This document shows positions 260 through 13,791 of a stretch of 25,904 nucleotides of DNA, one piece after another (positions within the stretch are counted from its first letter, which is position 1; each line of letters opens with the position of its first letter). The DNA comes from a virus. Lineage: Duplodnaviria; Caudoviricetes. The stretch is from positions 1 to 25,904 of IMG/VR virus record IMGVR_UViG_3300008740_000043. One strand, written 5' to 3'. Position numbers and translations under genes: made by a program. The notes under the pieces are model-generated. The model ran no database searches. It had not been told where the DNA came from and saw only the letters and a list, made by a program, of their open reading frames with translations.

Positions 260-536
260 TTGTAGTATGAATATTATCCTTAGTATCCATATTATCCATA
301 CTATCAATACTATGTGGTCGATTGCTACTTTACTTACGTGAATGCAATTATTAAGTTTCTTGATTAATATTAATAATATTTTTCTGCACCTTTTCTGCTT
401 AACTTTTGCTACGAAAAATTTAGTATGACTAAAACGCGAAAAATTGCCAAAAATTATTTGGCGAAAAAATCCGTAGAAAACGAAAAAAGGTTAAGAATTA
501 AAATTAAATTCTGCACCTTGTTAATGCCGGAGCTAC

Positions 537-570
537 AAAAAAAATTGTATTAAAAAAAAATAGAAAAAAA
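537..570 (-). terminator. Oligo(T) tracts after the amidoligase operon, possible archaeal-type terminator
   Basis: Three A runs on the + strand (T runs on -) immediately downstream of the stop at 575. Confidence 0.45.
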
Positions 571-574
571 GACT

Positions 575-907
575 TTAGAATTTTTGTCTTTTTAATTCGT
601 ATGTTGCTTTAACGACTTTTCGTAAATGTTCAAAGTTATCAGCTTCAAATATTTTCGAAGTCTCGCCACAAGTTAAGCCAATCTCCAAACATTCAAAAAT
701 AAATTGTGAATGTTCTGGATTATACCCGCCTGTTTGCAACATTTTCTTCATAGACAATCGTCCGAAATTAGAAGGGTTTTTTCTAACAACAAACGAAGTT
801 ATGAATCCTGTTTCTTCTGCAATTGCAAGATATGGGCAACCTGTAGAAAATATTTTTTCTTCTGCACGTTGCAACAATTCTGCAATTTGCTGTTTTTGTG
901 TTTTCAT
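575..907 (-). CDS. Hypothetical protein (110 aa), last gene of the amidoligase operon
   Basis: ORF 575..937; the ATG at 907 (MKTQKQQ) overlaps the GATase stop as TAATG, so it is the likelier start. Confidence 0.7.
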   Translation of the reverse strand: MKTQKQQIAELLQRAEEKIFSTGCPYLAIAEETGFITSFVVRKNPSNFGRLSMKKMLQTGGYNPEHSQFIFECLEIGLTCGETSKIFEADNFEHLRKVVKATYELKRQKF

Positions 908-1959
908 TATTGTTTTTCTCCTTTTACTTTTTTCCAAAGTTCAACACTTGGGTTTTTTTGCATGTGTCGCTTTAGTTTTCGTTTTTGTTTTCGGTTTTGT
1001 TTTCGTTGTAATTTCATTTGTTTTCGCATGTCTTTAAGGTCGCGTTTTGTTGGTTTAATCACGACCCTTTTTACAGTCTCGATTTCTTTTTTTAGATTTT
1101 CTTTTCTGTCATTGTGCAATAACATTTCTAAATCTAGTTCTGTCATACACTCGTTTAAAGTGTAATCATGCTCGGCGCATTCTGGATTAAAGAATGGACA
1201 ATCCCAACCATTAACAAACTTTGTTATTTTTTGGTTGGTTTGTTTTACTTCATTCTTTTTTCCATAGTACCACGAACCGAAGCTCATGTTATTACCCCAT
1301 GTATGATTCAAGTTAGAACAAATTATGTTTTTGTTTTGTTCTTTGAAGTCATTGAATCTTTTTACGCCATCTTTTACAGAGTGAACGCAAAACTTTGAAC
1401 TTTTGTTTTTCTCTGCGAACTTTTCTAAGAATTTAATTCCTAGATTTCCAACAACATAAGCGAGCGCGTTTGTATCGCTTACCAAGTTTTCAACTTTGGC
1501 GTTCATATCTACACCGCGTTTTTTCTTGATGGATATTATTTCCTGTGCCATGCGTTTTAGTTCGGTAAAATTCATTGTACCGTTATGGTAAAGAATTATA
1601 CCATCTTTCACAAGTGTTGCACGTTGTGGGTTTTGCATATCTTCGCTTAATACGAATCCATGACAGCCGCAAAGATGTTTTGGGTTTGGATTTTTATAAC
1701 TACATTCAAGTTCGTTGCATGTTGAACCGTGTGAAGTTATGCGGGCATGGAAAACAAATTCTATTTTGTCTCCTTGCTTGAATCCTTCCTTTTCTATTAT
1801 CTCCAAAATTGCTTCAGGAGATAAATCACGACCCTTAAAAAATTCAATCGTGTTTCTTTTTGTTCTGATGGAAAAACCGTTTCCATGTGGGTTAGTCTCA
1901 ACCATAGATTCTAAATCTTCTATGGTTGGTACAGTTTTGAAACAAGAGATAACGCACAT
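907..1959 (-). CDS. Class II (Ntn) glutamine amidotransferase-like protein with a basic C-terminal tail
   Basis: Starts M-C (catalytic Cys2); motifs NPHGNG, FHARITSHG, HGF, YHNG and SDT typical of GATase-II; Lys/Arg-rich C-terminus. Confidence 0.88.
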   Translation of the reverse strand: MCVISCFKTVPTIEDLESMVETNPHGNGFSIRTKRNTIEFFKGRDLSPEAILEIIEKEGFKQGDKIEFVFHARITSHGSTCNELECSYKNPNPKHLCGCHGFVLSEDMQNPQRATLVKDGIILYHNGTMNFTELKRMAQEIISIKKKRGVDMNAKVENLVSDTNALAYVVGNLGIKFLEKFAEKNKSSKFCVHSVKDGVKRFNDFKEQNKNIICSNLNHTWGNNMSFGSWYYGKKNEVKQTNQKITKFVNGWDCPFFNPECAEHDYTLNECMTELDLEMLLHNDRKENLKKEIETVKRVVIKPTKRDLKDMRKQMKLQRKQNRKQKRKLKRHMQKNPSVELWKKVKGEKQ

Positions 1960-2940
1960 TTAGATTATCATCTCCGTTGTTTCTGTACTGAAACTTCTGT
2001 CAGTTCTTTGTTTTGTTGGTGCAGAATGTAAACGAACCTTTGGCATTTTGGTTTCTTTCTGTACCTTGTCGACCCATGTTTCAATGAAAGCGAATATTGC
2101 ACAATCCATATCTGTACAAAGTTTTTCGCTTTTGAAGTGTGGCAAACCGCGAATTTCTACGGTACCATGCAAGGCATATGGATAATTTACGTATCTGTAC
2201 CTTAATGGGTGTCCATCTTCTGCAGAGCGTCCGCCGATTTTGTTTGCTTGTCTTATTCCTGCACGTACTGCGCTCTCGTCATATTGTGAGAAACACCAGT
2301 AAGAGCCGTTATCGTGTTCTCCATTTCCGCACAATCTGTTGTAAAATTCCGCGTTTGTTGTTTTGTACATTTTGCCAAAGACGTACAAAAAGTTGCACAA
2401 GGTATCGAAAAATGCCTTGTTTGTTAAGGTGCTGTACATGGCGTCAGTTTTTACACTTACGTGTAAATGACTTGAACCGCTTTTGTTGCTCCTTAAATTT
2501 CCGTTTGTATAGACTTGAGTTAAAAATTCTCTCCAGTCTTTTACAGATTTGGTTAATCTGTTTCTATCGAATTCGTTTTCTGAATGTTCGCCGTCTCTTC
2601 TGTCAACATAAACAGAAGGGTCAGAATGTGGATTCATGAAACTGTTTGCAAAGTCATGTTCCATTCTTCCCTCGAATTCTTGGTTTGTTGCAAAAATATT
2701 TTTGAATTCAAGTTGACCAATTAGAATTACTAAACGGTCAACTTTTTGTTTTAATTCTGAACCTTCGCTGTGCAAAGTTTCAAAATCGAATTTTTCTAAT
2801 CCAGTGTTGAAATAATTTTCTGGATTATTGTTTTGTGTTTTCCAATAGTCCAAAGCACCTTCAAACTCTGTTGTTATGTATTCCATAATTTCAGAGATTT
2901 CAGTTCTTACGGTTTCTTGGTTGTGAATTTGTTGGCTCAT
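1960..2940 (-). CDS. Phage-type amidoligase (Amidoligase_2-like, glutamate-cysteine ligase/glutamine synthetase fold)
   Basis: Motifs EFEG, HSDPSV, ENEF, SGSSHLHVS, RYRYVN and HGTVEIR; directly adjacent to the GATase-II gene, as in known phage amidoligase operons. Confidence 0.85.
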   Translation of the reverse strand: MSQQIHNQETVRTEISEIMEYITTEFEGALDYWKTQNNNPENYFNTGLEKFDFETLHSEGSELKQKVDRLVILIGQLEFKNIFATNQEFEGRMEHDFANSFMNPHSDPSVYVDRRDGEHSENEFDRNRLTKSVKDWREFLTQVYTNGNLRSNKSGSSHLHVSVKTDAMYSTLTNKAFFDTLCNFLYVFGKMYKTTNAEFYNRLCGNGEHDNGSYWCFSQYDESAVRAGIRQANKIGGRSAEDGHPLRYRYVNYPYALHGTVEIRGLPHFKSEKLCTDMDCAIFAFIETWVDKVQKETKMPKVRLHSAPTKQRTDRSFSTETTEMII

Positions 2941-3515
2941 GAGTTTTGCACCTCGTCAACATATTCGATTTTTGATGTTACGTGAATTTTCAAAACTCCG
3001 CTGAATTCTTGAAAGACCTCAGTGAGTAATTCACGTTGACATTTTGCGATTAAATCGCGTGCTGTATTTGCCCATGTTTTCACGTCCTCGAGCATGTAGA
3101 CGCCTTTGAAGGTTACACGTTGTCCGTTTTTTTCTCCAACTTTGTTGAATCTCAAAACGTTGAGATTTGGCTGTCCGTTAACCATGAGGTTTTGTGAACC
3201 GCCCTCAATTGGTGCGCTGGTTTTGTTAAAAAATTCTTGAAGGGTTTCAGAGTCTCCGCATCTTGAGCGGGATAGATTTCTGAATTGTCTAGAATTCGAA
3301 GAACTGACGTTATACTCTAGTTTCTTACAAACTAGTTCTGCAATATCAGAGCGAACTAATGCTCTCAAATTGCCATTGTCATCAATTCCGAATTCAATAG
3401 CGTTGTAGTTTTCGCCGTATTTGTTGAAATATACGGTTGGCTCAACGCCGAATTTTTGAACAAACATTTTTTGAAAATGTTCGTTTTCCATTAGTTCTGA
3501 ATTAACTTTTGGCAT
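2937..3515 (-). CDS. Hypothetical protein (192 aa), first gene of the amidoligase operon
   Basis: Long ORF, ATGA overlap with the amidoligase start, TATA box upstream. Confidence 0.8.
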   Translation of the reverse strand: MPKVNSELMENEHFQKMFVQKFGVEPTVYFNKYGENYNAIEFGIDDNGNLRALVRSDIAELVCKKLEYNVSSSNSRQFRNLSRSRCGDSETLQEFFNKTSAPIEGGSQNLMVNGQPNLNVLRFNKVGEKNGQRVTFKGVYMLEDVKTWANTARDLIAKCQRELLTEVFQEFSGVLKIHVTSKIEYVDEVQNS

Positions 3516-3536
3516 GTAGGAATTTACCTATATCAC

Positions 3537-3544
3537 TATATATA
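3537..3544 (-). promoter_or_regulatory. Archaeal-type TATA box for the leaderless amidoligase operon
   Basis: TATATATA lies 22-29 nt upstream of the ATG at 3515. Confidence 0.65.
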
Positions 3545-3762
3545 GTCATGTATCACAATTTTAGAATATTATGCTATATTATATATACTGATTAAGTATT
3601 ACTTAACTTTGGGCGGAGATATTGTACTGGAATTAAATCTCTATTCATAACCCTATAGGATATTCGAATCTATTTAATCATCACATTCATACCATTCATA
3701 CCATTGATATTAATGGTTAAGATTAATCATATTATTCTCTAAGTCTCACTCAAACGACAGCA

Positions 3763-4075
3763 ATAAACGCGCCTGTGAATTACTTCCCTTGCTTTATGGA
3801 ATAAATCCGCGCGCCTTTTTCTTTGCTTTATGATTCCTGAAAACTAGTGCATAACCGCACCGTCGCCTAGTGACTAACGGTACCGTTCCGAACGGTACGC
3901 GTACTGTAAATTACGGTACCAGTACCGCAAAGTACGGTACAAAAAAAATTAACAATCGGGCAGCATTTCTGCGTAGCGCGCCTTATTTATTTGTTTCGGA
4001 TTCGGTACGGTAAAGTACGGTACTTATAAAAAAAAGCGACCGACAGATACACTTATATACAAGGCGCGCCCCCCC
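3763..4075. repeat. GTAC/GCGCGCC repeat-rich non-coding region (candidate origin or packaging site)
   Basis: 10 GTAC at 3880, 3895, 3901, 3916, 3922, 3932, 3937, 4005, 4015, 4020, mostly as CGGTAC/GTACGG/GTACCG; GCGCGCC at 3809, 3976, 4064; TTGCTTTATG at 3789 and 3823. Confidence 0.8.
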
Positions 4076-4113
4076 TTTTTAAAAACCGAGAAAAAATCTC
4101 GAAAAATGGGCGG

Positions 4114-4269
4114 TTAGTCCTTCATGAGTTCGGAAGCCTTTCTCCATATTATCTCATAGCGTTTGCCTGAACGGCTATGCTCTTCCATGTGTTTTCGACA
4201 TAAATGGTGGGTGTTCTTATCCACTTGTATGTGAAAAGAGGCTAATTCTTCGCATAATCCACATTTCAT
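4114..4269 (-). CDS. Small Zn-finger protein (51 aa), not in the ORF track
   Basis: MKCGLCEELASFHIQVDKNTHHLCRKHMEEH...MKD*; CxxC...CxxH; TTTATA at -29..-24 (plus-strand 4293-4298). Confidence 0.75.
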   Translation of the reverse strand: MKCGLCEELASFHIQVDKNTHHLCRKHMEEHSRSGKRYEIIWRKASELMKD

Positions 4270-4329
4270 AGGATATATATACACTGGTATCTTATAAACC
4301 CAAGATATTATTCCTGCCCAAAAAAAAGG

Positions 4330-4350
4330 TTAATAATTAATAGTTATTAA
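4330..4350. promoter_or_regulatory. 21-bp palindromic operator-like site, copy 1
   Basis: TTAATAATTAATAGTTATTAA, identical to 10557-10577; followed by an extra TAGTTATTAA. Confidence 0.55.
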
Positions 4351-4419
4351 TAGTTATTAAGTGTTATTATTAAGAGTGTGGTGTGAGCTTGCATATCCCT
4401 ATGGGAAGGACTACCGTAG

Positions 4420-5019
4420 CTAAGTAGCACTCTTAGGATAATCTAAAACCTTTAATTTCAGTTTTACAGGCTTTAAAGGAAAAACATATCTAAATTTAGG
4501 TAATTCAGGAACCTTTTCATACCCATGCTTATCTGCACATTCTTTCTCTTTTAGACCCTCTTTCTTTGATAGATCCCAAACCACCCTTTTATTGACCCTT
4601 TCTCCGTCCTTTATATAGTGGTATTTACGTCCTGTTTGACCACAATATAACCAACTAGCAGCCTGATATACAGTACCAATATGACCTTCTGTTTGATCTG
4701 CAAAAGACACCAAACATTTGATTTGTGGAAATTTCTGTCTAAGTATTTTAATGGACTTTGAGATAAAAAAGGTTCTAGGTGTTATACATTCATCTAAGAC
4801 ACACATTCTAAGAAACTCAAAGGTGTTTGATTGATTACCACCTTCCCAGATAGATTGGGCTAAAAGCCTACCGCTGACTTGACCAAAAGTGATTACACCC
4901 ACTAGAATGTCCTTTTGAAACATACCTGTAATTAGAGAAGCCTTACCTAATGATTGAGTATAATGGTGTTTCTCAACGAATGGTTTAGCCTGTTCTCTAG
5001 GGATAATTCTAACGTCCAT
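4420..5019 (-). CDS. Mom-like (GNAT-fold) DNA adenine modification protein
   Basis: KHHY, VGVITFG, EFLRM and LVSFADQTEGHIGTVYQAASWLYCG match the pattern of the phage Mu Mom family. Confidence 0.8.
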   Translation of the reverse strand: MDVRIIPREQAKPFVEKHHYTQSLGKASLITGMFQKDILVGVITFGQVSGRLLAQSIWEGGNQSNTFEFLRMCVLDECITPRTFFISKSIKILRQKFPQIKCLVSFADQTEGHIGTVYQAASWLYCGQTGRKYHYIKDGERVNKRVVWDLSKKEGLKEKECADKHGYEKVPELPKFRYVFPLKPVKLKLKVLDYPKSAT

Positions 5020-5138
5020 TAAAACTTAGCACCACAACCCTTACATTTGGAATACCCTGTAGAATGTCCATCATTTTTACCCCAAATCCATTCCCAACCT
5101 TTAGTAGCCTTACATTTAGGACATGGTTGAATACTCAT
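5019..5138 (-). CDS. Zn-ribbon microprotein (39 aa), not in the ORF track
   Basis: MSIQPCPKCKATKGWEWIWGKNDGHSTGYSKCKGCGAKF*; CPKC...CKGC; TAATG overlaps with both neighbours. Confidence 0.75.
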   Translation of the reverse strand: MSIQPCPKCKATKGWEWIWGKNDGHSTGYSKCKGCGAKF

Positions 5139-5359
5139 TAACACCAACCTGAAGCCTTACAAAAATCAAAGTTTTTAGGATTAAATATATTATCTTCTCT
5201 TTCCCAATTAGAAGAGTCATATCTATCTCTTACCCATTGAGAACCAGTGTCCTTAATATCGGACTTTGGAATGAAACAACCCTCTGCACTAGGAACGAAA
5301 AAAAGGATCGTTGCCACAAGGGCAACAATCTTAAAATACAGCGGTAAACCTCTTACCAT
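5138..5359 (-). CDS. Small membrane-anchored or secreted hypothetical protein
   Basis: N-terminal hydrophobic stretch LYFKIVALVATILFFVP; part of a chain of overlapping genes. Confidence 0.65.
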   Translation of the reverse strand: MVRGLPLYFKIVALVATILFFVPSAEGCFIPKSDIKDTGSQWVRDRYDSSNWEREDNIFNPKNFDFCKASGWC

Positions 5360-10583: not shown

Positions 10584-12458
10584 ATGAAGAAAATTACAGG
10601 TTTACTAGCTTTACCTCGTATTTCTCGTAATGGTAATTTCTATTTTCCAGAAGAATTAGCAAAAGCAGATGGTAAAACAGTACCTTTGAGATGGAATCAT
10701 ATCCAAGACAACGAAGGTATCATTGGTACAGCAAAACTTATGTATGATGAGGAAAAAATGCAGATTAATTATGAAGCAACAGTAGAAAATGAAGCAATAG
10801 AATCACAATTAGGAAATAAAGAATTTAAAGTAAGTCTAGGCGCAGAACCACAGAAAGAAGAACGTATTTGTCATGATGAAGGTAAATGTTATAACGTTCC
10901 ATTAGGATTAAATTTTAAAGAAATGTCAATAGTAGAAACTCCGGGAATTCCTGAAGCTACTTTAGACGTTATTGAATACTTTACAACAGAATCAGTTAAG
11001 TTTGAAGAGTGTGATTGTGAAAATACTTCTAATAATACTTCCAATAAAGAAATAAGCATGGCAGAAGAAACCGAAACAAAGGTTACTGTAGATACAAAGG
11101 AAGTTCCTGCTGAAAAACCAGTAGAAGCACCTCAATGTCCTGAAGGTCAAACCTACAAGGACGGTAAATGTGTTCCAGAAGCACCAGCTCCAGAAGCTCC
11201 AAAAGCACCTGAAGCAGTTGTTCCTGCACCAACCGCTCAAGTAGCAGCACCTCAAGAAGATTGTGGTTGTTCTAAGGAAACTAAAGCAGAGGAAACCAAT
11301 GTTGAAACAGATATTAATGCAAAGGTTGAAGCCAAACTAGAATCCATTCAAGATGAGATTCGTGAGAACTATTCTCCAAAAGCAAAGGTTGAAGAAAACG
11401 CAGTTCCAAAAGGCTACGTTGAAGAAGGTGTTGACCAACAGGTCGAAGACCTCAAAAAAGTGCTAAAAGGAAACAGTGTTGTCATTGAAATTGACAAAGA
11501 GGACTTTTATCAAGCCCACACTGTAAAAGAAAACTCTCCTGTTACAGAAGCAGTTTCTACTTCAGGTACTATCCCAACCGTTTCTGCTCAAAGAGATATC
11601 ATTGTTCTACCGGGTGGCATTAGTGTCAAACCTGTAAGACAATGGACACAGTTCAAAGAGATTCCGCAAGGCAACGACAAAGTTCGTTTCTACAAGATTG
11701 ATATCCCTGCATTTGGCGATATCACTGAAGGTGGAAGCGACATTACTGCAAGCACCCATACTTTAACTAGTATTGATGTTGCAGCAGATACCCCTCGTGG
11801 TTTCCGTCAAGTAGTAAAGAAAACAGAGATTGAAAAATACCCAAGTGGTCTATTAGAAGCAATCCGTTCTACTGCAAGACTAAGAGCTATCCAAGACGAA
11901 GCAAGTATTATCTTGAAAGATATCGCAGCACCAGCTGCAGCAGCAAGTGGATATAACACTTTTGTTGCAGGCAAACATTTGAGAGCTGACACAGGCGCAA
12001 ACGTTGGATCAACATCTGACGAAGACGCAGCTGGAGAGTTCTTGAAAGAGGGTGTAGAGTTTGGTCGTCAAAAACTAGAAGAAGCAGGCTATGATGTAAG
12101 TCCGGGCAACGTTGTCTTGGCAATCACACCAAGAGCTTTTAGAACATTAATTTCTGATCCTGACATAGCAAGATTTGTACAAAACGGAGATCCTTCTATC
12201 TCACAACAAGGTAGATTGGAAAGATACTTAGGTGTCGATCTATTTGTTACAAACACACTACGAACTGCAAATAACTCTTACAGAAATGTAATGTGGGTTA
12301 AAGGCAAAGCTTTCGCAGTTGCTTCAGGAAGAAAACTCGAATTAGAGTTTGACAAGAACATTGATAACCAATCCGTTTCTGTAGTTGCAACACATAGAAC
12401 CAACGCAGGAATATTGGACAGCAACGCTTACGTTATCTTAAGTAGCAAACAAGATTAG
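10584..12458 (+). CDS. Prohead protease-scaffold-major capsid protein fusion (HK97 fold)
   Basis: N-terminal SRNGNFY, PLRWNH, VSLG and EMSIVETPG (phage prohead protease pattern); Pro/Ala/Glu-rich linker; C-terminal MCP-like region (TEG, AITPRAFRTL, GRLERYLGVDLFVTN). Confidence 0.88.
   Translation: MKKITGLLALPRISRNGNFYFPEELAKADGKTVPLRWNHIQDNEGIIGTAKLMYDEEKMQINYEATVENEAIESQLGNKEFKVSLGAEPQKEERICHDEGKCYNVPLGLNFKEMSIVETPGIPEATLDVIEYFTTESVKFEECDCENTSNNTSNKEISMAEETETKVTVDTKEVPAEKPVEAPQCPEGQTYKDGKCVPEAPAPEAPKAPEAVVPAPTAQVAAPQEDCGCSKETKAEETNVETDINAKVEAKLESIQDEIRENYSPKAKVEENAVPKGYVEEGVDQQVEDLKKVLKGNSVVIEIDKEDFYQAHTVKENSPVTEAVSTSGTIPTVSAQRDIIVLPGGISVKPVRQWTQFKEIPQGNDKVRFYKIDIPAFGDITEGGSDITASTHTLTSIDVAADTPRGFRQVVKKTEIEKYPSGLLEAIRSTARLRAIQDEASIILKDIAAPAAAASGYNTFVAGKHLRADTGANVGSTSDEDAAGEFLKEGVEFGRQKLEEAGYDVSPGNVVLAITPRAFRTLISDPDIARFVQNGDPSISQQGRLERYLGVDLFVTNTLRTANNSYRNVMWVKGKAFAVASGRKLELEFDKNIDNQSVSVVATHRTNAGILDSNAYVILSSKQD
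11024..11033 (+). promoter_or_regulatory. Internal late-promoter motif inside the capsid gene (TACTTCTAAT)
   Basis: TTC at 11027, 31 nt before the in-frame ATG 11058; 10/10 identical to the copy at 12734. Confidence 0.7.
11058..12458 (+). CDS. Nested in-frame scaffold-MCP isoform lacking the protease domain (466 aa)
   Basis: ATG 158 codons into the fusion gene (MAEETETKV), just after the protease domain, preceded by the late motif at the standard spacing. Confidence 0.65.
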   Translation: MAEETETKVTVDTKEVPAEKPVEAPQCPEGQTYKDGKCVPEAPAPEAPKAPEAVVPAPTAQVAAPQEDCGCSKETKAEETNVETDINAKVEAKLESIQDEIRENYSPKAKVEENAVPKGYVEEGVDQQVEDLKKVLKGNSVVIEIDKEDFYQAHTVKENSPVTEAVSTSGTIPTVSAQRDIIVLPGGISVKPVRQWTQFKEIPQGNDKVRFYKIDIPAFGDITEGGSDITASTHTLTSIDVAADTPRGFRQVVKKTEIEKYPSGLLEAIRSTARLRAIQDEASIILKDIAAPAAAASGYNTFVAGKHLRADTGANVGSTSDEDAAGEFLKEGVEFGRQKLEEAGYDVSPGNVVLAITPRAFRTLISDPDIARFVQNGDPSISQQGRLERYLGVDLFVTNTLRTANNSYRNVMWVKGKAFAVASGRKLELEFDKNIDNQSVSVVATHRTNAGILDSNAYVILSSKQD

Positions 12459-12960: not shown

Positions 12961-13791
12961 ATGGAATACCTATACATTCTCCTTTTTTTCTTAGCATTTG
13001 CTATGGTTGGACTAATGATTGGTGTAACTATGGAAGCTGCTTTTGCAGATTATTTTGACGCAGTAAATATTAGATATAATGACAATCCTGTAACTTGTAT
13101 ATTTGAACCCGAATATGATGAAGATTATTTTAATTCAAACCAACTTAATGCAGTATTCACAGGTGTGAAGGAATGGGAAAACACATTAACTAGAGCAACG
13201 GGTGGAGATTGGTATATCCCAATTTATGTATATGAATGGGAAGATCATGTAGATAAAGAAGTTCATGATTTTATGAATTGTGATATTTTTATAACATTTG
13301 AAGAACATAATGATGGTAAGATTGTAAACAACAGTGCATTAGGATTTAATTATTTTAATCATAGTTGGTCAAAACACAAATATTCACATATAGTAGTATT
13401 CTCAAATACAATAGATAAAGAATCACTTAATATTGATTTGGGTGTAATACAAGATGGAGATCATATAGAAATAGTATTAAAATCAGTTAGAGTGCCTGAT
13501 TCTGATATTCATCATATAGTAAAACATGAGTATGGACATGCAGTAGGATTACTACACCATTGGAATACAGATAAATCAAACGAAATTAAGAGTGTAATGC
13601 ACCCTGTTTTTGATCCATTTACAGATTTTTATATGGAAATACAACCTAGAGATGTATATGGAATAGTTCAACTATATGGAGAAGACGGGTGGGGTAAACC
13701 AAATCCCTTATTTGTAGGTAAAAAAATAGAAAGTTTGGAATGGTTTATTCCAAAGATTGACGTACTTGACGTAAGAGTATTGTTGCAATAA
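12961..13791 (+). CDS. Membrane-anchored or secreted metzincin (matrixin/M10-like) zinc metalloprotease
   Basis: HEYGHAVGLLH (HExxHxxGxxH), Met-turn SVMHP, D-x-x-G-I-x-x-L-Y-G terminal helix, N-terminal hydrophobic signal. Confidence 0.9.
   Translation: MEYLYILLFFLAFAMVGLMIGVTMEAAFADYFDAVNIRYNDNPVTCIFEPEYDEDYFNSNQLNAVFTGVKEWENTLTRATGGDWYIPIYVYEWEDHVDKEVHDFMNCDIFITFEEHNDGKIVNNSALGFNYFNHSWSKHKYSHIVVFSNTIDKESLNIDLGVIQDGDHIEIVLKSVRVPDSDIHHIVKHEYGHAVGLLHHWNTDKSNEIKSVMHPVFDPFTDFYMEIQPRDVYGIVQLYGEDGWGKPNPLFVGKKIESLEWFIPKIDVLDVRVLLQ

Follow-up and report, generated by a model that had tools for sequence, protein, structure and literature searches.

The window analysed here is the whole of a 25,904-base stretch of DNA, the IMG/VR virus record IMGVR_UViG_3300008740_000043 (positions 1 to 25,904), which is of marine origin, has a G+C content of 35% and was judged 72% complete. 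At its left end lie four co-oriented genes on the minus strand in the order g1-g2-g3-g4 (span 575-3515; Table 1), whereas the remaining part encodes the structural module of a tailed virus (terminase, Mu-like portal, HK97-type capsid and tail proteins). The two central genes very probably encode a ligase of the glutamine synthetase (GS) fold and a class II glutamine amidotransferase (GATase) of the N-terminal-nucleophile (Ntn) type, and we tentatively propose that the pair works on a nucleic-acid-associated substrate. An earlier note on this DNA, made from its letters, had described a four-gene translationally coupled operon, and the gene junctions bear this out: the g1 stop and the g2 start overlap as ATGA, the TAA of g2 abuts the ATG of g3, and the g3 stop and the g4 start overlap as TAATG. 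The order of the genes is also kept in a second viral lineage, represented by two metagenome contigs (L092 and L093) that are 99.99% identical to each other, in which a Mom gene, a small zinc-finger open reading frame (ORF) and an intergenic region again precede g1-g2-g3-g4. For g4, the ORF listing contains a longer alternative frame (575-937) with a TTG start.

Table 1. Features of the operon and its surroundings in the 25,904-base window (aa, amino acids)
Feature	Position	Strand	Description
g1	2937..3515	-	192 aa; lineage-restricted protein
g2	1960..2940	-	326 aa; predicted ATP-dependent carboxylate-amine ligase, glutamine-synthetase fold; divergent relative of Amidoligase_2
g3	907..1959	-	350 aa; predicted class II (Ntn) glutamine amidotransferase-fold amidohydrolase, predicted nucleophile Cys2
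g4	575..907	-	110 aa counted from ATG at 907
Conserved region upstream of g1	3516..3625	-	Predicted archaeal promoter/operator, from sequence and conservation
T runs directly 3' of the g4 stop	520..574	-	Oligo-T transcription end of the operon, predicted from sequence
Mom-family (GNAT) DNA adenine-modification gene	4420..5019	-	0.9 kb upstream of the operon, same strand; separate predicted transcription unit

None of g1-g4 was detected by any Pfam, NCBIfam or PHROG model, and the assignments were therefore tested by fold and profile-profile comparison. The enzyme assignment of g3 is strongly backed at the fold level by its predicted structure (predicted local distance difference test score, pLDDT, of 64.5; 6-row alignment). 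In a Foldseek search of PDB with this model, 27 matches were obtained at E≤0.001, with the glutaminase domains of GFAT-1, GlmS and PurF and with GFAT-1 as the best match (E 7.6e-5, prob 1.00). After re-alignment with VIA, the top 30 rows were all class II GATase/Ntn enzymes (Z 8.9-5.8), including EgtC (8.9), GlmS (8.7), PurF (8.3), the YafJ-like protein PA1307 (PDB 1te5; 7.0) and AsnB (5.8), and the next unrelated row had a Z of 4.2. Residue 2 of the model paired with chain residue 1 or 2, that is, with the position of the catalytic cysteine. The modelling shows g3 to have a class II GATase/Ntn fold with Cys2 at the predicted catalytic position, the Ntn domain comprising residues 2-~215.

The sequence of g3 begins with MCVIS, and a cysteine stands right behind the start codon in the window, in L092 (TTG start), in the family members P0008 and P0010 and in the phage contig L095, with MCC in P0009; this position was judged only where the N-terminus was available, P0006 and P0007 having been called from a later Met. 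The blocks N23-F29 (NPHGNGF), H71-I74 (HARI), H125-T128 (HNGT) and S161-D162 (SD) were invariant, even when a phage homologue of 25% identity was included. In the contexts HxRxxS, HNG and SD, respectively, R73, N126-G127 and D162 are invariant across the g3 family, and they may be the counterparts of the R73, N98-G99 and D123 motifs of GlmS. No match of g3 to Pfam GATase_2, GATase_4, GATase_6 or GATase_7 could be found in the whole-Pfam scan, and GATase_4 and GATase_6 run singly against the window gave nothing at E≤10, though controls matched in 14 of 14 genomes. A PDB profile search with the g3 alignment and a tblastn search of 50,697 phage records were also without a match; the sequence relatives of g3 fall into five clusters.

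There is no synthase domain in g3, and residues 215-350 consist of Cys/His motifs and a basic helix. A CPFxNxxCxxH...C motif is located at 254-271 (conserved C254, C261, H264 and C271), and the Ntn domain itself contains a Cys/His-rich insert (C81, C86, H95, C97, C99 and H100). A net charge of +19, with 26 K+R, was counted for the last 65 residues (+9 to +20 in homologues), in agreement with the very basic tail noticed earlier. The adjacent ligase g2 is a candidate for the ammonia-accepting partner of g3. Considering that the best structural match, EgtC (Z 8.9), is a stand-alone gamma-glutamyl amidohydrolase and that a synthase domain is missing, g3 might alternatively act as a hydrolase, which makes the previous idea of a hydrolase or peptidase-like partner a reasonable one. 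A complex prediction for g2 with residues 1-215 of g3 had a score of 0.00 and was informative in neither direction.

For g2, the enzyme assignment is moderately backed at the fold level by a predicted structure with a pLDDT of 66 and a predicted template modelling score (pTM) of 0.72 (5-row alignment). A wide VIA search, independent of Foldseek, placed GS, PafA, Dop, YbdK-like, GCL and gamma-glutamylmethylamide synthetase in all 13 of the top 13 rows, with Z values of 6.2-4.4 that lie below the caution line of the tool (8); GS had the highest value (6.2), followed by PafA (5.8) and Dop (5.7) at ranks 2-3. When the model was compared with BFVD, six of the top 11 rows were named, and five of these six were phage amidoligases (best E 0.045, prob 0.93). 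We also aligned the g2 family by hhalign with an Amidoligase_2 profile of 33 proteins gathered starting from phiEco32 gp84. The score was 31.8, whereas none of 22 controls (20 profiles with shuffled columns, a reversed one and an unrelated one) exceeded 20.2, and the probability was 15%. In a permissive (low-mact) hhalign alignment the motifs of g2 and Amidoligase_2 were collinear, namely QEFE/ELELE, D107xS/DGS, NE123/GxE, H158xH160/HxH, RYxYVN/KYTxLN and E262xR264/ExR. It should be noted that in the scan of all Pfam models g2 was not matched by PF12224 (gathering score 22 bits) even with the threshold relaxed to E≤1, whereas the positive controls phiEco32 gp84 (34 bits) and the L095 ligase (67 bits) were; because the Pfam threshold was missed, g2 is not filed as a member of this family but only as a distant relative. 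Foldseek found nothing in PDB at E≤0.001, a PDB profile search with the g2 alignment and tblastn against the same 50,697 phage records gave no match, and the sequence relatives of g2 amount to five clusters, its own one included. Each of the positive lines is weak alone, but they are independent and agree, and we therefore consider it very likely that g2 is a GS-fold carboxylate-amine ligase related to Amidoligase_2.

The earlier note had called the GATase and amidoligase motifs intact and had proposed hidden Markov model (HMM) searches and structure prediction of all four proteins as a check. Intactness holds at the level of folds and motifs (Cys2 and the Ntn fold in g3, the collinear motifs in g2) and fails at the level of Pfam, PHROG and NCBIfam models. 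No family HMM matched g1-g4, but the predicted folds of g3 (class II GATase) and, more weakly, g2 (GS-type) agree with the identities that it had named, the closest resemblance of g2 being to phage amidoligases and carboxylate-amine ligases of the GS fold. If the folds were misassigned, or the proteins catalytically dead, the operon would encode structural or regulatory enzyme look-alikes. The silence of the sequence-family models and the moderate confidence of the structure models are in line with this possibility, but there is no variation at Cys2 or the remaining motif positions down to 25% identity, the top 30 VIA rows for g3 all belong to one enzyme class, the ligase motifs are collinear and purifying selection is strong, and we regard it as most improbable. 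Taken jointly, the enzyme identities of g2 and g3 appear highly probable to us.

The comparison with the L092 lineage also revealed how the operon has evolved. Protein identities between the window and L092 were 54-55% (g1), 62% (g2), 77% (g3), 57-58% (g4) and 76% (Mom), whereas the terminase, portal and capsid proteins were ~95% identical to those of L092/L093. The ratio of nonsynonymous to synonymous divergence (dN/dS; Nei-Gojobori), in a comparison that rests on the rows for g1-g4, Mom and the major capsid protein, was 0.22 for g1, 0.16 for g2, 0.12 for g3 and 0.26 for g4, and with these values of 0.12-0.26 all four ORFs are real coding genes under purifying selection. Synonymous divergence by the same method was 1.2-2.2 for g1-g4 vs 0.38 for the capsid gene. 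The module is thus far more diverged than the structural genes, and the pattern is mosaic. A similar observation could be made for the whole part of the window with modification and early genes (575-5019), whose synonymous divergence from L092 is 1.0-2.2 as against 0.38 for the capsid gene (10584-12458), with protein identities of 54-77% vs 95%. This left arm has either been swapped by recombination or is evolving much faster. Nucleotide relatives at 90-95% identity were present in contigs from estuary, freshwater and biofilm runs. Two contigs from an RNA library mapped to g2 (2026-2377) with 0-1 differences, which is a weak hint of expression since DNA carry-over is possible.

The intergenic region upstream of g1 is 600 nt long, and its last ~110 nt are ~95% identical to L092, compared with 54-55% for the g1 protein. 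This conserved part contains a perfect palindrome, TTAAGTAATACTTAA, and the box TATATATA at -29 to -22 relative to the g1 ATG, the proximal of two TATA-like boxes; there is no space for a leader, and the repeats D6 and I6 are located there. Judged from the sequence, the spacing of TATATATA fits a single predicted archaeal-type promoter and a leaderless or near-leaderless message, consistent with the one TATA promoter proposed before. Bacterial-type promoters were rejected because sigma-70 sites occurred at chance level (13 found and 12.9 expected in a scan). In L092, a block of convergent genes begins beyond g4. At the very end of the window, positions 1-56 are an uninterrupted run of 56 C, which is most likely an assembly or contig-end artefact and not biology.

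Further information about the virus came from a near-identical sister contig (G001) of 34,725 bases, which is 96% complete, terminates within g2 and adds a replication module. This module encodes a full MCM helicase with OB, P-loop and lid domains (PF00493, 7e-66), a PD-(D/E)XK nuclease, a winged-helix protein and a protein with a weak metallophosphatase match (Metallophos, E 0.0054). Since the best cellular matches of this MCM were archaeal in 80 out of 80 cases (33-42% identity), the virus is archaeal, as the earlier note had supposed; a peptidoglycan-bearing bacterial host, which would speak against that note, was not indicated. Peptidoglycan is for the same reason an unlikely target of the enzymes. 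On the other hand, the suggestion of a thaumarchaeal host received no support. Among the 81 MCMs of a phylogenetic tree, that of the virus (L007:7555-9372) had the longest branch (2.63) and nested in no sampled archaeal phylum. The viral MCM is also extremely divergent, with an amino-acid make-up unlike that of cellular MCMs. When host copies or proviruses were looked for, the g2 profile was found in 0 out of 401 sampled genomes of the GTDB phylum that contains a Nitrososphaerales genome, and PF12224 in 1 of these 401; because the genomes are sampled and incomplete, the former count is no proof of absence. Marine origin and 35% G+C would fit several archaeal groups. Two proteins of the structural module may be mentioned here. 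The first, a 276-aa ORF (12961-13791), has a C-terminal match to Peptidase_M10 (matrixin zinc protease; E 1.3e-5, above the cut-off), which is unusual in a tailed-virus morphogenesis block. The second, a capsid-region protein of 624 aa (10584-12458), matches the major head protein only at residues 363-622, and its N-terminal 360 residues could be a fused scaffold or protease.

The two small proteins of the operon offered few leads. In an exhaustive phmmer search among 1.84 billion representatives, g1 had seven matches, all from its own family, and no sequence or profile match could be found in PDB. Its look-alikes by ESM features were SRA-family clusters (score 0.90, a value that shuffled proteins reach 4-10 times in 100), whereas PF18491 gave nothing at E≤10 and no SRA family was found in Pfam scans of five family members. 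The possibilities that g1 is a counterpart of phiEco32 gp85 or gp86 (hhalign score 15.8), or a degenerate ligase or Ntn protein, were rejected because hhalign remained at background. No ESM Atlas match was obtained for g4, in which two helix-turn-helix-like stretches could be seen by eye in the sequence.

A protein or peptide target might explain the translational coupling of the enzymes to two small proteins that are specific to the lineage. In such a scheme a viral or host protein, perhaps g1 or g4 itself, would be amidated by the ligase at a carboxylate or receive an amino acid (for example, glutamate) there. Preparation or trimming of the tag would be the task of the Ntn enzyme, by analogy with Dop and PafA in the case of Pup. 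The ranks of PafA and Dop for the g2 model, the gamma-glutamyl amidohydrolase EgtC as the best match of g3, and the presence of an ATP-grasp ligase and a YtfP-like gene with the phiEco32 cassette are all in line with it, and phage cassettes of this type are discussed in PMC11706807, which cites Iyer 2009, in terms of secondary metabolites or modulation of gene expression. However, no substrate-like conserved acidic tail was evident, the C-termini of g1 being variable (YVDEVQNS, FVDEVDNS, FVEENKK and YSGATNQ). Moreover, the g2 fold does not favour protein ligation, since GS scores as well as PafA/Dop (Z 6.2 vs 5.8), and the basic tail of g3 and the Mom, GNAT and ASCH contexts would be left unexplained. 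We therefore consider a protein target rather unlikely, and the S-layer or receptor protein that had been suggested as a substrate found no support in this analysis.

A small-molecule product, that is, a glutamine-dependent amide or gamma-glutamyl metabolite serving as a signal or anti-defence molecule during infection, appears less likely still. Most top VIA rows of g2 were occupied by small-molecule enzymes (GS, gamma-glutamylmethylamide synthetase, GCL and YbdK-type ligases), and the pair has been published as auxiliary metabolic genes (PMC11706807). Nevertheless, neither the K/R-rich tail and Cys/His motifs of g3 nor the coupling of two small proteins to the enzymes would be accounted for, and a scan of 24 ORFs of the window and 16 of the sister contig revealed no transporter or further biosynthetic gene.

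Upstream of the operon, the Mom-family gene was identified by PF25680 (E 4e-43; 147.9 bits vs a cut-off of 27.1; positions 3-202 of the 202 in the profile) and phrog_1384 (E 7e-42). Its product is 27% identical to Mu Mom, with HY, RM, PR, SFAD and G.VYQA in common. For the catalytic residues R111 and S124 of Mom given in PMC13219725, no mapping onto the numbering of the window-Mom alignment was achieved. Two small zinc-finger-like ORFs flank Mom on the minus strand, one of 42 aa (5019-5147; CPKC...CKGC) ending at the Mom start and one of 56 aa (4114-4284; CxxC...CxxH) downstream, the latter 80% identical in L092; they recall Com, a zinc-finger activator whose gene overlaps mom in the annotation of phage Mu. 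Between the Mom unit and the operon, the intergenic stretch 3875-4023 (and 3809-4069) contains GGTAC(C/G)G-type units 21 nt apart, in direct and inverted repeats, together with three GCGCGCC motifs, and ~100 nt of it are 100% identical in L092. These repeats could serve as an origin of replication or as an array of binding sites for a regulator.

On the basis of these results, we tentatively propose that the operon encodes a GS-fold amide ligase and an N-terminal-Cys amidohydrolase that make or remodel an amide bond on a nucleic-acid-associated substrate, most likely viral DNA bases, rather than on the cell wall. In this scheme, g2 would activate a carboxylate with ATP and couple it to an amine, whereas two roles are conceivable for g3, namely amidation, in which it would provide glutamine-derived ammonia, and trimming or deamidation, in which it would remove a gamma-glutamyl or carboxamide group by hydrolysis. 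Recruitment of the enzyme pair to DNA or RNA would fall to the C-terminal part of g3, which is basic and rich in Cys/His, and g1 and g4 might be lineage-specific adaptors or regulators. We lean towards nucleic acid as the target, with less than even confidence, because of the Cys/His motifs and basic tail of g3, the Mom gene kept 0.9 kb upstream in L092, the GNAT/ASCH context of L095 and a published co-association: amidoligase and amidotransferase domains are reported to be co-associated with thymidine-hypermodification clusters (PMC8989533). In addition, the ABC-ATPase+GNAT architecture is described in PMC7824862 as one predicted to acylate a DNA base.

Several observations weigh against this proposal. 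Besides the failure of all family models to detect g1-g4, the structure models rest on only 5-6 sequences with modest pLDDT values, and the fold scores of g2 are weak (no Foldseek match in PDB, VIA Z ≤6.2, BFVD E ≥0.04 and hhalign 15%). The SRA domain in g1, a lead from ESM features only, failed every HMM test. With respect to Mom, a terminator-like hairpin with a T-run at 4102-4086 separates it from g1, and none of five other Mom-bearing viral loci (L099-L103; Mom proteins 31-72% identical, some of them short) contained the cassette, so that an obligate linkage to Mom was rejected. No pairwise similarity could be found between the window Mom and the GNAT of L095. According to PMC13219725, Mu Mom acts as a single enzyme with Gly-tRNA and no helper. 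Finally, the phiEco32 cassette occurs without Mom, and its neighbours, an ATP-grasp gene and a YtfP-like gene, point towards a chemistry of peptides or gamma-glutamyl groups.

A more specific scheme, in which momylation is extended, is in our opinion improbable. Here the zinc-finger-like motifs and the basic tail of g3 would direct it to DNA, where it would deamidate the carbamoylmethyl group that Mom places on adenine N6 to a carboxylate, as Dop does for Pup, and g2 would then add an amine or amino acid with ATP. If it were true, the DNA of an archaeal virus would contain a new and larger adenine hypermodification, and phage amidoligase/GATase cassettes would generally be DNA-base amide-remodelling systems. 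The more general proposal has consequences of its own. DNA-modification-type genes recur beside the pair (Mom here, ABC-GNAT and ASCH in an unrelated phage), and together with the extension of g3 this gives a testable hypothesis of amide chemistry on DNA bases. The pair persists in an archaeal virus beyond the reach of sequence-family models, where the peptidoglycan idea is inapplicable. Its minimal four-gene form is easily cloned and would be a compact system for finding the true substrate even if the DNA-base hypothesis is wrong. Our results also help to annotate a protein family that is now labelled only 'hypothetical'. Overall, the observation recorded in the earlier note is confirmed, and its interpretation is partly supported.

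With regard to known systems, the occurrence of an amidoligase together with a class II GATase in bacteriophages was reportedly pointed out by Iyer et al. in 2009, and no report of a measured product of such a pair was found in our literature search. In print, the pair has already been annotated for the marine archaeal tailed virus Vyasavirus brisbanense (a virus of Poseidoniales), where amidoligase and GATase stand beside a metallophosphoesterase (PMC11706807). An archaeal virus with this pair is therefore no novelty in itself, and the system cannot be called undescribed, as the earlier note had tentatively done. The sister contig has a weak Metallophos match too, a likeness based on the published description and not on sequence. 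Neither Mom nor MCM is named in that paper (0 occurrences). As for Mom itself, the Mu enzyme carries out a Gly-tRNA-dependent hypermodification of adenine at N6, and the neighbour in the window is a member of the Mom family, but the operon is a separate predicted unit and a functional link between the two is hypothetical.

The g3 protein resembles the stand-alone amidohydrolases EgtC and PA1307 and the glutaminase domains of GlmS, GFAT and PurF in its predicted Ntn fold, with a predicted Cys nucleophile right behind the Met, and differs from them in its low identity (10-17%), the absence of a Pfam GATase match and an additional 135 C-terminal residues. At the level of the operon, the closest classical arrangement is that of phiEco32, in which a GS-fold ligase (gp84, Amidoligase_2, PF12224) is also directly upstream of a class II GATase (gp83) among the non-structural genes of a tailed virus. 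That phage has in addition a second ligase (gp86, COOH-NH2_lig, PF14395), an ATP-grasp protein (gp80) and a YtfP-like protein (gp77), whereas PF14395, ATP-grasp and YtfP/GGCT-like domains were found neither in the four operon proteins nor in 20 further ORFs (≥70 aa) of the window or 16 ORFs of the sister contig. No sequence similarity to the phiEco32 genes could be detected, a search of that genome with the A1 and A2 profiles being empty at E≤10. The GATase is shorter here (350 aa vs 676 aa in gp83) and has Cys/His motifs together with a basic tail, and the host is an archaeon here, unlike that of phiEco32.

The high-GC phage contigs L095 and L096 (IMG/VR) also have a ligase gene directly upstream of a g3-family Ntn gene. 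By sequence, the Ntn protein of L095 is genuinely homologous to g3, with which it has 25% identity in the region of residues 1-216 (E 1e-11) and the motifs MCVI, NPHGNGF, FHARI, HNGT and SD(S/T) in common, but it is without the Cys/His insert and the CPF..C motif, and the ligase beside it is, unlike g2, a Pfam-positive Amidoligase_2 (2.3e-18). The neighbours differ as well, being an ABC-ATPase+GNAT fusion and an ASCH gene in L095 and Mom, g1 and g4 here. The gene row L095:5501-10795, in which the ABC-ATPase+GNAT fusion, canonical Amidoligase_2 and g3-family Ntn genes are followed after ~1.7 kb by an ASCH-domain gene, is an independent second case of the amide cassette occurring together with domains of the nucleic-acid-modification type. 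Because L095 and L096 combine Amidoligase_2 with a true g3 homologue, they link the g3 family to the classical cassette. The pairing of ligase and GATase is ancient, and the operon is a very divergent, slimmed variant of the phiEco32-type cassette to which two lineage-specific partners have been added.

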